From assembly GCA_965262605.1 (NCBI GenBank), contig CBDHFN010000003.1:1312930-1376929 (forward strand): 64,000 bases of DNA, written 5' to 3'. Source of the stretch: Alphaproteobacteria bacterium. GTDB taxonomy: Bacteria > Pseudomonadota > Alphaproteobacteria > JASGCL01. How positions within the stretch are numbered: position 1 is the stretch's first letter; every line of letters begins with the position of its first letter. Positions 14,409 through 46,820 of this stretch are shown one piece after another. Made by a program: the position numbers and the translations under genes. Below the pieces are notes generated by a model. The model did not search any database. It was not told where the DNA came from and worked only from the letters and a program-made list of their open reading frames with translations.

Positions 14409-14610
14409 ATTTTCTCTTTGCATTTCAAACTTAAAGCCAAGCAAAAATACTTATACTTTTTGCTTGGTTTTTCGCATGAACCGCTTTGATTAAATGAATT
14501 TTAATCTTTATATTATTTTCTCTTTGCATTTCAAGCCTAAAATCATCGCAAAAATGCGTATGCTTTTTGCGCAATTTTCGCGCTTGCGCTTTAATGGGAT
14601 TAAAGGATTA
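14409..14610. repeat. Two tandem diverged ~106-bp units, each with a central hairpin; first unit may act as terminator
   Basis: ATTTTCTCTTTGCATTTCAA at 14409 and 14515; hairpins AAAGCCAAGCAAAAA..TTTTTGCTTGGTTTT and GCAAAAATGCGTATGCTTTTTGC. Confidence 0.65.
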
Positions 14611-14777
14611 ATTTTATAATTTCTGCTTTGCGCCTCTCTTAGCAATATTTCATGTCTTTTATTCAAACGCGATAAACCACCCCGCTTGTTTATTGCCAAG
14701 GCAATTACGCAAGTATTGCATCAGGGCATAAAATTACCTTTTGGTAATTTTATATAGAAATTGAAGTAATTCAATTT

Positions 14778-14826
14778 CTGCCCTTCAACCTCCGCTTCGG
14801 CTACGCCGAAAATCTAAAGATTGGAG
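14778..14826. repeat. REP-like palindrome, left part of the IS110 target locus
   Basis: CCTCC-GCTTCGGC-TAC-GCCGAA-AATCT-AA-AGATT-GGAG nested hairpins; GGAG(GGGAAGG) is interrupted by the IS. Confidence 0.55.
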
Positions 14827-14851
14827 TTATCTGTGGGTGTCAAGGTTTTTT

Positions 14852-15784
14852 TTAATAATTTTTATCAAAGATTCTATTTTCCTTGACCAGCGTATTAACC
14901 AAGAGTAATAACTTGCGCATACAAGCTGTATGTGCAAGTTTTTTTGGTTTATTTAAGGCAATTTTATCGTTTGTATTTTTAATAAAATCAATTTTACGAA
15001 CAGCATTAAATGTGGGCATGTATAAAGCTTTTCTAACTTTACATCGCCCACCACCAATAAATTTTTTACCTGTAAATTTTCCCGATTGATTATCCATTGG
15101 AGCTAGCCCTGCCAATCGGGCTATTTGCCGTTGGTTGAGCGAACCTATTTCAAACATAAATGCAAGTAATGAATAAGCTGTAATCTCACCAATACCCGGT
15201 ACCGATGTCATTATCGTGTATTTATTGGTTAATCCCTCGTCGTCTTTAATGATTTTTGCCATTTCTGTCAATATTTTATCAATATTTTTATTAATGGTTT
15301 CTATCAATGTTTTATTGATTTGATGACTAACTTTTACCTGATTGACTTTATCACGATTTTGCATTTGCACCCGAATATCAATTAATTCATTGTATTTATT
15401 CATTAATTCCTGCATGATATGCAACATTTTATGACTAAGTTTGCTGGGTTTAATTTCATGTCTTTTAGCATAATCAGCTAAAAAATACGCGTCTTGCTTA
15501 TCGGTTTTGATTGTTTTTCGCAACGAATCCTTATGCCGTTTAACACAATAACTATCCACCAAAGCATACTCTATTGCTTCGGCTTCTAATATTACTTGTA
15601 ATTGCCGATGATAAACATTTGTTGGTTCAAACACAACCAAATCAGTTTTGTTCTTTTTAATCAACTTAACGAACTTCTTGATAGATTTCAATGTATTGTC
15701 TATCACTAAATATTCATTATTCATCATAAAATAAACATCTAATTTTTCTTGCGAAACATCAATTCCAATGATATTATTTGACAT
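14852..15784 (-). CDS. IS110-family transposase/recombinase (DEDD RuvC-like + Tnp domain)
   Basis: GIDVSQ (D), VFEPT (E), KTDKQDA (DD), SVPGIGEITA and AGLAP..QSG motifs; ATG at 15784 follows AAGGAG. Confidence 0.95.
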   Translation of the reverse strand: MSNNIIGIDVSQEKLDVYFMMNNEYLVIDNTLKSIKKFVKLIKKNKTDLVVFEPTNVYHRQLQVILEAEAIEYALVDSYCVKRHKDSLRKTIKTDKQDAYFLADYAKRHEIKPSKLSHKMLHIMQELMNKYNELIDIRVQMQNRDKVNQVKVSHQINKTLIETINKNIDKILTEMAKIIKDDEGLTNKYTIMTSVPGIGEITAYSLLAFMFEIGSLNQRQIARLAGLAPMDNQSGKFTGKKFIGGGRCKVRKALYMPTFNAVRKIDFIKNTNDKIALNKPKKLAHTACMRKLLLLVNTLVKENRIFDKNY

Positions 15785-15789
15785 GGTTT

Positions 15790-15975
15790 TCTCCTTTTTT
15801 CTGCCTTGTCCGCGAGCCAAAATATTATTTTGCTCCATTATCTGTTCGAAACTAGGGAAAATCAGCGGGTAGCGATTAAACTCCATACGATTCTTTAAAA
15901 TCAGGGGAAGCAACAATCCGCTACCCGCTATCTAATTCTCCCTTTTAGAAGAACTATACAAAATATTATTCATAT
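15790..15975 (-). ncRNA. IS110 bridge RNA (ends approximate)
   Basis: Stem AGCGGGTAGCG(G)ATT/AATCGCTACCCGCT encloses guides CTTCCCCT (15903-15910) and TGGAG (15881-15885). A second loop carries ACAGATAA (15838-15845) and GACAAG (15805-15810) around a GAGC-AAAATA..TATTTTG-GCTC hairpin. Confidence 0.85.
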
Positions 15976-15998
15976 TTCATATCTTTTTTATATAGACA

Positions 15999-16120
15999 AG
16001 GGGAAGGATACTATTTTTAAACAAAATATAGTGCGTTTAAAAATAGCATCCTTCCCCTCCTAAGCGAAGCAGCTAACCGAAGGTTAGGCGGAGGGGTGCG
16101 CCGAAGGCGCGGGGTGGTTT
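15999..16120. repeat. REP/REPIN-like palindromic element
   Basis: Inverted arms GGGAAGGATACTATTTTTAAAC (16001-16022) and GTTTAAAAATAGCATCCTTCCC (16035-16056), then CCCCTCC..GGAGGGG with CTAACC-GAA-GGTTAG and GCGCC-GAA-GGCGC hairpins. Confidence 0.7.
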
Positions 16121-16168
16121 ATCGCTATCGCATTTAAAACTATGCAATCAAGCAACAAACTTTAATTA

Positions 16169-17740
16169 TTATTTTCTAGGGAGCTGGCTTTTGGGAATTA
16201 CATAATATCTTATATAATTTGCATTAATTCTTGCGTCGGTATGTCCATTTTTAAATGCTTTTTCAAACCATTCAAACGCTTTACCATAATTTTGCTTAAC
16301 GCCTTTACCTTCATAATAAAGCTGACCTAAATAATATTGCGCAACTGCATTACCCTGATTAGCGGATTTTTCAAACCATTCAAACGCTTTACCATAATTT
16401 TGCTTAACGCCTTTACCTTCATAATAAAGCTGACCTAAATAATATTGCGCAACTGCATTACCCTGATTAGCGGATTTTTCAAGCCATTCAAATGCTTTAC
16501 CATAATCTTGCTTAACGCCTTTACCTTCATAATAAATCTCACCTAATTTAAATTGCGCAACTGCATCACCCTGATTGGCGGATTTTTCAAACCATTCAAA
16601 TATTTTACCATAATCTTTTTGAACGCCTTTACCTTCATAATAAAGCATACCTAAAAAAAATTGCGCAATTGCAATTCCCTGATTGGCGGATTTTTCATAC
16701 CATTCAAACGCTTTACCATAATCTTGCTTAACGCCTTGACCAAGATAATAAAGCCAACCTAAATTAAATTGCGCATCTGCATTACCCTGATTGGCGGATT
16801 TTTCAAACCATTCAAACGCTTTACCATAATCTTGCTTAACGCCTTGACCATGATAATAAAGAAAACCTAAATTATTTTGCGCAACTGCATTACCCTGATT
16901 AGCGGATTTTTCATACCATTCAAATGCTTTACCATAATCTTGCTTAACGCCTTTACCTTGTTCATAAAGCAAACCTAACTTATCTTGCGCAACTGCAAAT
17001 CCCTGATTGGCGGATTTTTCAAACCATTCAAATGCTTTACCATAATCTTGCTTAACACCATCACCTTGTTCATAAAGCATACCTAAAAAAAATTGCGCAA
17101 TTGCAATTCCCTGATTGGCGGATTTTTCATACCATTCAAATGCTTTACCATAATCTTGCTTAACGCCTTTACCTTGTTCATAAAGCAAACCTAACTTATC
17201 TTGCGCAACTGCAAATCCCTGATTGGCGGATTTTTCAAACCATTCAAATGCTTTACCATAATCTTGCTTAACACCATCACCTTCATAATAAAGCATACCT
17301 AAAAAAAATTGCGCAATTGCAATTCCCTGATTGGCGGATTTTTCAACCCATTCAAATGCTTTACCATAATCTTGCTTAACGCCTTGACCAAGATAATAAA
17401 GCCAACCTAAATTAAATTGCGCATCTGTATTCCCCTGATTGGCGGATTTTTCAAACCATTCAAATGCTTTACTATAATCTTGCTTAACGCCTTGACCAAG
17501 ATAATAAATCTCACCTAATTTAAATTGCGCATCTGCATTACCCTGATTGGCACGATTCTTAAGTTTTTCAATCTTATTTAAATATGATAATGAAGTGCCA
17601 ACTACTTTTGGTAATTTTATATTTTTCGTTTCATTTGATTCATTAAAGACATTATTACTAAAAATATTACTTAAAATACCAGCATGCAATGGTTGAATAA
17701 AGATTGTGATTAAGGATGAAATAAAAAATAGTTTATACAT
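16169..17740 (-). CDS. Secreted Sel1-like repeat protein, 12 tandem 36-aa repeats
   Basis: Signal peptide MYKLFFISSLITIFIQPLHA, then 12 x AxAQxxLGxxYxxGxGVKQDYGKAFEWxEKSANQG; alternative TTG start at 17782. Confidence 0.93.
   Translation of the reverse strand: MYKLFFISSLITIFIQPLHAGILSNIFSNNVFNESNETKNIKLPKVVGTSLSYLNKIEKLKNRANQGNADAQFKLGEIYYLGQGVKQDYSKAFEWFEKSANQGNTDAQFNLGWLYYLGQGVKQDYGKAFEWVEKSANQGIAIAQFFLGMLYYEGDGVKQDYGKAFEWFEKSANQGFAVAQDKLGLLYEQGKGVKQDYGKAFEWYEKSANQGIAIAQFFLGMLYEQGDGVKQDYGKAFEWFEKSANQGFAVAQDKLGLLYEQGKGVKQDYGKAFEWYEKSANQGNAVAQNNLGFLYYHGQGVKQDYGKAFEWFEKSANQGNADAQFNLGWLYYLGQGVKQDYGKAFEWYEKSANQGIAIAQFFLGMLYYEGKGVQKDYGKIFEWFEKSANQGDAVAQFKLGEIYYEGKGVKQDYGKAFEWLEKSANQGNAVAQYYLGQLYYEGKGVKQNYGKAFEWFEKSANQGNAVAQYYLGQLYYEGKGVKQNYGKAFEWFEKAFKNGHTDARINANYIRYYVIPKSQLPRK
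16240..17550. repeat. Near-identical 108-bp tandem repeat array encoding the Sel1 units
   Basis: CCCTGATT(G/A)GCGGATTTTTCA..CCATTCAAA(T/C)GCTTTACCATAAT recurs every 108 bp. Confidence 0.92.
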
Positions 17741-18038
17741 AAAGTCAATCTTAATATACGCAATTTGAGTGATTTTTTTCAAAAAATTAAATTTTTTTGA
17801 AAAAAGTTTGCGATAAAGGTAAAATTATGATTCTATATATCTGAAAATTAATTAAAAAACCTATCACAATATAAAAATACAAAATTTTATCGCCGTTTGT
17901 CAAGCAATAATTTGCAAAATTGCAATTAATTATGGATTTTTATTACTTTTTAGGTTAAATCACGCAAAAAAATATAATTATTATAAAAAATCAAAAATAT
18001 GCTTGCATTTAAAAAAAAATCGTATAAACAAACTTTAT

Positions 18039-45554: not shown

Positions 45555-46820
45555 ATGAATATTTTAATTATTGGGCAAGGCGCCCGCGAACATGCTATAT
45601 GCTTAAAAATTGCGCAATCGCCTTTTTGCGATGAAATTTATTGCGCTCCCGGCAGTGATGCCATCGCCAAAATTGCTAAAATAGTGCCGATTGCCGTCCA
45701 TGAAGTGGCAAAATTGGCGCAATTTGCCCTTGAAAATAATATTAATTGCGTGATTCCTTGCCCCGAAGTGCCTTTTGGTTTGGGGATTTATGATGAATGC
45801 CAAAAATTGGGCGTGCGATGCTTGGGTCCTTCGCAATCGGCGGCAATTTTGGAAACTTCCAAAATACGCATGAAAGAAATTGCACAAAAATATCAAATTC
45901 CCACTGCGAAATTTGCTAAATTTTCCAATGTTGCTAAGGCTTTGGCGTATATTGAATCGCATGACTTGCCCATAGTGATTAAAACCGATGGTTTGGCGGC
46001 GGGCAAGGGCGTGATAATTGCGCAAAATATTAACGAAGCCCAAGAAGCCATTACCAGCATGATGATTGATAAAAAATTCGGCGAACAAGGCGCAAATATT
46101 GTTATTGAGGAATTTATGCAGGGGCAAGAATTATCATATTTTGTGCTTTGTGATGGCAAGAATTTTGTTTTTATGGGCGCAGCCCAAGACCATAAACGCA
46201 TTAATGATGGCGATGAAGGTGAAAATACGGGGGGCATGGGCGCATATTCGCCCGTGCCTTTTTTGGATATTGCGCTTGATAAAAAAATTCAAGATAAAAT
46301 TGTGCGCCCTTTGGTTGATGGCATGGCGCAAGAATCAATGGCTTACATGGGAATTTTATTTTTTGGCTTAATGGTTGATAAGGGCGAACCAAAATTAATT
46401 GAAATTAATATCCGCATGGGCGACCCTGAATGCCAAACGATTTTGCCCATGATGCATTCGGATTTATTAGTGGGGATTCAAGCGGCAATTGACGGGGTTT
46501 GTGATTTTTTTCAATTCCAATTTAAAAATACTCATAGTATTTGCGTTGTCATCGCGGGTAAATTCTATCCGCAAAGCCCAATTACAGGGCAAGAAATTAT
46601 TCTGCCCCAAGAAATTCCACAAAATATTCATGTATTTCATGCAGGCACCAAGATTCGTGAAAATAAAATTATCGCCAATGGGGGCAGGGTGCTTAGCATT
46701 ATTGCCACAGGAGATAGCTTGCACGAAGCCCAAGATTCGGCATATCAATTTATCAAGCGAATAAATTTTCCTGATAGTCATTACCGAAAGGATATAGGAT
46801 GGCGGGCTTTGAAGAATTAA
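45555..46820 (+). CDS. purD: Phosphoribosylamine-glycine ligase
   Basis: GQGAREHA, KTDGLAAGKGV, QDHKR..DGD.G.NTGGMGAY, EINIRMGDPE and GGRVL motifs. Confidence 0.97.
   Translation: MNILIIGQGAREHAICLKIAQSPFCDEIYCAPGSDAIAKIAKIVPIAVHEVAKLAQFALENNINCVIPCPEVPFGLGIYDECQKLGVRCLGPSQSAAILETSKIRMKEIAQKYQIPTAKFAKFSNVAKALAYIESHDLPIVIKTDGLAAGKGVIIAQNINEAQEAITSMMIDKKFGEQGANIVIEEFMQGQELSYFVLCDGKNFVFMGAAQDHKRINDGDEGENTGGMGAYSPVPFLDIALDKKIQDKIVRPLVDGMAQESMAYMGILFFGLMVDKGEPKLIEINIRMGDPECQTILPMMHSDLLVGIQAAIDGVCDFFQFQFKNTHSICVVIAGKFYPQSPITGQEIILPQEIPQNIHVFHAGTKIRENKIIANGGRVLSIIATGDSLHEAQDSAYQFIKRINFPDSHYRKDIGWRALKN

Follow-up and report, generated by a model that had tools for sequence, protein, structure and literature searches.

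An intact IS110-group insertion sequence with a predicted two-loop bridge RNA that matches its own ends and insertion site

Introduction

Among experimentally studied insertion sequences, IS621 of Escherichia coli (Durrant et al., 2024, PMC11208160; Hiraizumi et al., 2024, PMC11208158; Protein Data Bank (PDB) 8wt6) offers the comparison for the element described here, which is known from sequence alone. In the account of Durrant et al., IS110-group elements such as IS621 excise without a scar to form a circle, have a promoter at the circle junction, encode an RNA of ~177 nucleotides (nt) in the left end and use targets of the repetitive extragenic palindromic (REP) type, the natural target of IS621 being ATCAGGCCTAC; the same account gives 300–460 residues as the length of IS110 family recombinases and reports predicted bridge RNAs for 85.7% of the IS110 elements catalogued, as well as for thousands of orthologues. 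Hiraizumi et al. report that D11, E60, D102, D105 and S241 of the IS621 recombinase are each essential, and that, once strands have been exchanged, the two bases after each 3′ guide, here called handshake positions, pair with positions 6–7 of the partner DNA, but must be unable to pair with their own. Here we analyse a 64,000-nt stretch of alphaproteobacterial DNA (the window; assembly GCA_965262605.1, contig CBDHFN010000003.1, positions 1,312,930 to 1,376,929) and describe an insertion sequence on its minus strand at positions 16000-14825, which we read, with a probability of about 0.9, as an intact IS110-group element whose left end encodes a two-loop bridge RNA matching the element's own ends and its insertion site.

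Several other described systems bear on this reading. The recombinase of ISCro4 (PDB 9t56) belongs to the same family, and engineered human-cell systems have been described (bioRxiv 10.1101/2025.05.14.653916). ISPpu9 and ISPpu10 of Pseudomonas putida, also of the IS110 family, are reported to insert into REP or conserved intergenic hairpins (PMC12288879; bioRxiv 10.64898/2026.03.19.712850) and, according to these reports, resemble the present element in targeting a many-copy intergenic palindrome, while host and repeat differ. Elements of the IS1111 group share the recombinase family and the guide logic, their seekRNA or right-end bridge RNA lying in a long right end.

Results

Junctions and guides

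All features of the element are read on the minus strand, where the left junction reads TATCCTTCCC-CT-TGTC (CT at 16000-15999) and the right junction ACAGATAA-CT-CCAATC (CT at 14826-14825). The insertion is centred on this short core, common to donor and target, and shows no further target duplication; uninterrupted repeats of the kind into which the element has inserted hold one CT. The left end (214 nt) is much longer than the right (25 nt) and is matched by a structured RNA model, a trait of the IS110 group. Because the predicted RNA lies in the left end and the right end measures 25 nt, the layout places the element in the IS110 group and not in IS1111.

An earlier reading of the window, made from the bare letters and their open reading frames (hereafter the sequence-only reading), had proposed an IS110 element at these positions with all four guides of a bridge RNA legible against its own target and donor, and each guide indeed lies where it had been placed. 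The first loop of the predicted RNA is complementary to the target and the second to the donor, the 5′ sides of the loops reading the bottom strand and the 3′ sides the top strand. We measured these matches against 20,000 dinucleotide-preserving shuffles of the 200 nt from the inferred RNA start to the ATG, counting core-anchored matches at least as long as those observed. The 8-nt match of the left target guide was reached in 80 shuffles, the 8-nt match of the left donor guide in 117, the 6-nt match of the right donor guide in 351 and the 5-nt match of the right target guide in 4,050, while all four together were reached in none (0/20,000). The four-guide set is thus beyond chance.

The core dinucleotide (CT or AG) is included in the left target, right target and right donor guides; the left donor guide fails this trait of IS621. 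In most of the distant relatives examined below, the left donor guide covers the first core base only, and in one locus (L017) both bases, while the lineage of the window carries an extra A in both the donor and the left donor guide. A core included in all four guide pairings belongs to the description of IS621 and does not define the family.

Copies, targets and empty sites in the genome

A search of the genome (2.6 megabases on three contigs) revealed three full-length, near-identical copies of the element, all lying in one family of hairpin repeats. The two further copies, B and C, have ends identical to those that the sequence-only reading had drawn for the window copy; B and C have the same sequence throughout, and 2 of their 1,176 bases distinguish them from the window copy; one of these changes is silent, and the other is D266Y, at a position that varies. 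Two of the three copies are flanked by TATCCTTCCC-CT-CCAATC, and the third (copy C) by TATTCTTCCC-CT-CCTAAG. Copies B and C (C3:1236034-1238545) lie 160 base pairs (bp) apart in two neighbouring repeat units, inverted and with their right ends facing, an arrangement that could support inversion or loss of the interval.

The target had likewise been reconstructed in advance. The 11 nt set by both target guides, CTTCCCCTCCA, occur uninterrupted six times in the genome, against 0.44 occurrences expected from base composition, and the contexts of all six sites continue the left and right flanks of the window copy for tens of bases. As paralogous empty sites, all six bear out the reconstructed target letter for letter. 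Sites of a second type, CTTCCCCTCC, number 19, of which 17 fall in the same repeat family by our own reading of their contexts. The target lies on a stem arm of a hairpin repeat of the form GGAGGGGAAGGAT...ATCCTTCCCCTCC. None of four same-family genomes held a relative at an E-value (E) ≤1e-20, so that no orthologous empty site could be sought. Loose contig ends at 14826 and 15999, considered as an empty allele of the window locus, are read instead as paralogous uninterrupted repeats.

The repeats are genome-specific composite hairpins, often clustered and made of the modules GGAGGGGAAGGAT...ATCCTTCCCCTCC, CGCCGAAGGCGCGGGGTGGTTTA and GCAGAAATTGAATTACTTCAATTTCT. They occupy 15998-16150 and 14700-14824 in the window and recur across the genome, for example at C2:81265, C3:1069606-1069970 and C3:1692706-1692924.

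The recombinase

The recombinase carries both domains of its family, PF01548 (DEDD_Tnp_IS110; E 7.3e-19, 68.5 bits against a cut-off of 29) and PF02371 (Transposase_20, the C-terminal transposase domain; E 5e-14, 52.9 bits against a cut-off of 21.3). Only two matches were found among solved structures, the recombinases of IS621 (8wt6, E 2.1e-21) and ISCro4 (9t56, E 3.5e-20). The ISCro4 match is full-length and distant, the two elements having been compared by protein only; the IS621 alignment runs end to end (window residues 5-307 on 9-319) at 80 bits, again a distant match. D9, E53, D95, D98 and S234 are invariant across 25 aligned sequences (the window protein and 24 homologues) and align with the IS621 residues D11, E60, D102, D105 and S241 in the motifs GID, E(A/P)T, KTDxxD and SG, S234 sitting in an SGK motif and aligning with the serine of the IS621 ESG motif. 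Given the domains, the full-length alignment and the invariant catalytic residues, the gene is intact as far as sequence tells, in line with the sequence-only reading. That reading had also called the enzyme compact: its 310 residues stand, and the adjective is relative in a family of ~300–460 residues in which the IS621 recombinase has 326.

Longer starts were considered and rejected. The open reading frame list begins the gene at a TTG at 15916 (354 residues) and a database call gives 344 residues; since the 24 homologues align from the ATG, we regard both as artefacts that read through the RNA gene. The frame at 14852-15916 (minus strand) is in this way over-called through the donor loop, and a close relative, P0002, is likewise called at 325 residues; such over-long recombinase gene calls conceal the RNA gene in annotation.

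Close protein relatives are few, two sequences showing 69% and 68% identity and the next at most 39%. A profile scan of genome contigs with the family alignment returned relatives of 29-37% identity only, the 68-69% relatives coming from a metagenome scan, and the best annotated plasmid relatives are less than 37% identical to the window recombinase.

Structure of the predicted bridge RNA

The left end folds at -66.1 kcal/mol (z-score -5.98), and none of 200 shuffles was as stable. A search of 14500-16300 against Rfam gave 23 matches at E≤10, none of which reached its gathering score and none of which was a bridge-RNA family; the best of them, microRNA hairpin models lying below threshold on the flanking repeat hairpin, were set aside. 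Unconstrained folds of the left end also pair its start with the right donor guide. We read such pairings as by-products of guide complementarity and therefore refolded the RNA from its inferred start with the guides held open. As Rfam offered no family, a covariance model (R1) was built from three left ends, those of the window and of two close relatives from a metagenome (L091 and L092), with the structure taken from the guides-open fold. R1 scores the window bridge RNA at 212 bits. The basal UUUC/GAAA stem (15851-15848 with 15801-15798) was accepted in the window because all four of its pairs show compensatory changes in relatives. That the RNA is expressed and bound by the recombinase is a prediction, as are the positions of its 5′ and 3′ ends; the programmability of its guides is predicted from the family.

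Elsewhere in the window, R1 gave a weak match (18.6 bits, E 0.045) at 46538-46643 on the minus strand; a 421-residue reading frame on the plus strand covers it, and we judged it to be due to chance.

Guides and flanks vary together in relatives

The two near relatives (68-69% protein identity) were recovered with their flanks from one metagenome assembly. Across the window, L091 and L092 the left ends show 91% column identity, against 68-69% for the proteins, so that constraint is stronger on the non-coding end than on the gene. In L091 the left target guide reads CTTCCCCT and the flank ACTTCCCCT, whereas L092 shows a joint change, with TCTTTCCCCT in guide and flank alike. Among the window element, L091 and L092, a single compensatory pair is seen in the inner hairpin of the first loop. 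GGGGTGGTTTA-type repeats resembling those of the genome are present in both relatives, an indication that their host is related.

R1 was then run against 86 loci totalling 348,771 bases, of which 84 are distant. At E<1 it gave a plus-strand match immediately ahead of the recombinase gene in 18 of these 84, and it matched a further three in part. Aligned under the model, the loci share conserved segments in the donor loop (mostly ACGGATAC and GACAAG), whereas those of the target loop are different in almost every one of them, a pattern also described in the 2024 account of the family (PMC11208160). We located the element ends of each locus from its own donor-loop segments and then compared its target-loop segments with its own junctions and with those of the other loci. 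The 5′ side of the loop matched its own left junction over a mean longest match of 6.56 nt (n=18) and the left junctions of others over 3.75 nt (n=300); for the 3′ side and the right junction the corresponding values were 6.38 nt (n=16) and 4.24 nt (n=238). In a permutation test on the 15 loci with full windows on both sides, none of 5,000 permutations reached the observed sum of 192 (permuted mean 127). Poor rows were L021, L012 and L029 for the right junction and L032, L006 and L027 for the left; we regard the right end of L029 as uncertain, the left ends of L032 and L027 were not placed correctly, and for L076 and L036 the right end was fixed by exact matching. Short contigs with cut-off flanks (L012, L036, L061, L062, L076 and L079) were excluded from the means or from the permutation. 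The target-loop/donor-loop architecture that the sequence-only reading had likened to IS621 is supported by this comparison.

The paired positions themselves were also retained. For the 51 pairs of the model in 25 hits, standard pairs filled 90.9% of cells, against 38-49% when the partners were slid by 1-3 columns, and 49 of the 51 pairs showed changes on both sides, in an alignment fitted to the model. One locus on a genome contig (L067) has GT at the left junction where CT is expected, with CT at the right junction; the core may be non-canonical here, or it may have mutated once the element was in place.

Handshake positions

Two further features were added to what the sequence-only reading had noted, namely handshake positions and a putative junction promoter. 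The right target guide, TGGAG, is followed by TT and the donor ends in AA before the core, so that the resulting 7-mer is the reverse complement of AA-CT-CCA, the right junction (AACTCCA). After the right donor guide, GACAAG, comes a G, to which corresponds the C that precedes the core in the target; with this G the guide becomes the reverse complement of C-CT-TGTC. Neither handshake stretch can pair with its own DNA, which has CC and AA, respectively. By our own reading of the strings, all 20 loci whose right end could be read have, just 3′ of the right target guide, a base complementary to donor position 7, which forms G:C in place of A:T in four of them. Of the 18 loci whose left junction could be read, 14 show complementarity between target position 7 and the base that follows the right donor guide; L019, L062, L069 and L061 do not.

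A putative promoter across the joined ends

At the sequence level, joining of the right and left ends, and only that, brings together TTGACA-N17-TATATA. This agrees with a sigma-70-type promoter at 10 of 12 positions and would place the RNA start near 15983. The best promoter-like site spanned the junction in all 16 reconstructed junctions (the window element and relatives), with a 17-nt spacer in 14 and at least 9 of 12 positions matched in 11 of them. In the integrated state, no promoter above background was found ahead of the left end (4 sites against 6.6 expected).

Positions of the features

The coordinates of all features are collected in Table 1. Directly upstream of the element lies a gene for a 537-residue protein (16169-17782, minus strand) with a signal-like N-terminus and ~13 tandem Sel1-like repeats, (G)QGVKQDYGKAFEWFEKSANQGNA.

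Table 1. Features of the element and its surroundings (window coordinates).
Feature	Coordinates	Strand	Remarks
Whole IS110-group element	14825..16000	-	1,176 bp with both CT cores counted; 1,174 bp with a single core
Left target flank, TATCCTTCC-C	16001..16009	-	3′ arm of repeat hairpin ~15998-16059; same flank at copy B
Left CT core	15999..16000	-	CT is the sole sequence common to both junctions
Left non-coding end	15785..15998	-	214 nt; encodes the predicted bridge RNA
-10 half of putative junction promoter, TATATA	15989..15994	-	17 bp from the -35 half across the single-core junction
Predicted bridge RNA	15798..15983	-	~186 nt; 5′ end inferred from the junction promoter, 3′ end taken as the end of the donor-loop basal stem
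5′ stem-loop (helix 1)	15956..15982	-	11 bp; compensatory changes in relatives at 11/11 pairs
Target-binding stem and internal loop (helices 2-4)	15854..15943	-	outer stem, GCGGGUAGCGG/CGCUACCCGC stem, loop, inner hairpin; paired 78-94%, with compensatory changes
Left target guide, CTTCCCCT	15903..15910	-	equals left target plus core
Right target guide and handshake	15879..15885	-	TGGAG (15885-15881), then TT (15880-15879); reverse complement of AA-CT-CCA
Donor-binding stem and internal loop (helices 5-7)	15798..15851	-	basal UUUC/GAAA stem, loop, inner hairpin 15835-15814; paired 96-100%, compensatory changes in 11/11 pairs
Left donor guide, ACAGATAA	15838..15845	-	equals last 8 nt of the right end; stops short of the core
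Right donor guide and handshake	15804..15810	-	GACAAG (15810-15805), then G (15804); reverse complement of C-CT-TGTC; one-base flank extension also in relatives
Shine-Dalgarno AGGAG	15791..15795	-	ends 6 nt ahead of the ATG; pairs with UUCUUCU (15953-15947) in the constrained fold
Recombinase gene	14852..15784	-	310 residues plus stop; ATG at 15784, stop 14854-14852; Pfam, invariant columns, IS621 alignment (8wt6)
-35 half of putative junction promoter, TTGACA	14838..14843	-	promoter formed only by joined right and left ends
Right non-coding end	14827..14851	-	25 nt
Right CT core	14825..14826	-	read at the right junction
Right target flank, CCAATC	14819..14824	-	continuous with the left flank in six uninterrupted paralogous repeats
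Unoccupied second-type target, CTTCCCCTCC(TAAG)	16051..16060	+	other arm of the window copy's hairpin, opposite strand; genome C3:1328980; copy C lies in a site of this type

Discussion

The element is probably an intact and recently active insertion sequence, and its parts suggest how it would move. Excision would join the right and left ends at a single CT and so create the sigma-70-type promoter TTGACA-N17-TATATA, which would transcribe the left end as a bridge RNA of ~180 nt and, further on, the recombinase mRNA. The folded RNA would consist of a 5′ hairpin followed by two stems, both interrupted by an internal loop; the first loop would read the target and the second the element's own joined ends, with ACAGAUAA pairing with the left donor and GACAAG with the core and the right donor; one or two bases after each 3′ guide (UU and G) would then pair with the partner DNA after the first strand exchange, as a handshake. 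A tetramer of the 310-residue recombinase, with its DEDD RuvC-like site and Ser234, would cut beside the CT and exchange strands, and the element would in this way have been inserted at CTTCCC-CT-CCA on the arms of the genome-specific hairpin repeat. The recombination chemistry in this scheme is borrowed from IS621, and the programmability of the system, which the sequence-only reading had also put forward, is presumed from the family.

The likeness to IS621 extends over a two-domain DEDD/Ser recombinase that aligns over its full length, a CT core, a long left end with a short right end, a predicted RNA made of a 5′ hairpin, a target loop and a donor loop, handshake positions past the 3′ guides and a promoter rebuilt across the joined ends (recognised here from sequence), and insertion into repeated, REP-like hairpin elements. 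The differences are minor. The natural target, CCTTCCC-CT-CC over the 11 positions compared, departs from ATCAGGC-CT-AC of IS621 at 7 of the 9 non-core positions, which bears out the different specificity that had been expected. The right target guide extends 3 bases past the core as opposed to 2 in IS621, the left donor guide leaves the core uncovered, and, unlike in IS621, the right end has only 25 nt and the donor loop ends ~20 nt from the start codon.

Several observations weigh against our reading. The right target guide is weak when taken alone, as the shuffles show, and copy C mismatches it at the third base past the core; in both close relatives the guide is CGGAG and matches only the CTC of the right junction CT-CTACGA. 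Past the left donor guide the RNA reads UG, whereas the donor reads CT, so that one of the four guide-core pairings of IS621 is missing, and in L091 this guide differs from the element's own right end at one base. The unconstrained minimum-free-energy fold pairs both target guides together, and the loops appear only in the constrained fold, at a cost of 8.1 kcal/mol. Without the T that usually ends a -10 hexamer, TATATA would not pass a strict promoter-scan rule. Finally, the comparative counts are inflated by related loci that are not independent (such as L019, L062 and L069), and the covariation alignment, being fitted to the model, favours the structure and contains 4 spurious rows among its 25.

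The shortness of the right target guide match, which arises in about 20% of shuffles, is also what could be cited for regarding all four guides as chance similarities in an AT-rich leader beside a repeat. All four matches together did not arise in 20,000 shuffles, and the same columns hold flank-matching segments in distant relatives (0/5,000 permutations); we consider this explanation refuted as far as computation goes and leave it a negligible probability. That the left end might instead act mainly as a translational leader controlling recombinase synthesis, the short matches being by-products of a target preference set by the protein, draws on a 7-bp stem seen in the constrained fold (UUCUUCU/AGGAGAA, 15947-15953 with 15790-15796, minus strand), which encloses both loops and covers the ribosome-binding region, and on the right donor guide ending just 20 nt before the ATG. 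A pure leader, however, would not have loop segments that vary in step with their own flanks or stems kept by compensatory changes; in the two close relatives, by our own reading, the anti-Shine-Dalgarno pairing loses strength, an internal mismatch leaving 6 of its 7 positions paired, and in IS621 the RNA is reported to be required for recombination in vitro (PMC11208160). We hold such a role as the main function of the left end to be very improbable, and keep the stem, given its weakness in the two relatives, only as a lead, in that it may link folding of the RNA to translation of the recombinase.

A different doubt concerns activity. The element could be intact in sequence and yet no longer mobile, its bridge RNA silent and its promoter confined to a circle that no longer forms. 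Only three copies exist, and the integrated state offers no promoter above background; a joint of right end to left end was absent from the contigs of four runs (one study) holding the element, an observation of little weight since contigs are poor at showing rare forms. Against a silent resident speak the recent copying implied by two identical copies and by no more than 2 differences in 1,176 bases between copies, the intact reading frame with all its catalytic residues, and the many empty target sites that remain. We therefore think it unlikely that the element is immobile and favour a recently active, intact bridge-RNA element.

A more speculative idea, which we put forward tentatively and consider rather doubtful, is that in the window element and its two metagenomic relatives the donor is read one base out of register, with the core left unpaired, and that, linked to this, the RNA is fused to the recombinase leader, with the ribosome-binding site covered by the stem around both loops, so that translation would occur only upon refolding or cleavage. 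Were this so, maturation of the guide RNA would be coupled to the dosage of the recombinase.

The element adds a further example to a mechanism reported in 2024, without amounting to a system of a new kind, and it may already be present in the predicted-orthologue catalogue of that study (PMC11208160). Leaving the understanding of the mechanism unchanged, it adds a well-documented natural bridge-recombinase system from a little-studied bacterium. Its short recombinase (310 residues), its C-rich natural target, its fully readable donor, target and handshake and the presence of occupied and empty sites in one genome make it a convenient candidate as an orthologue for genome editing, and it could show how such elements use genome-specific hairpin repeats as landing pads.

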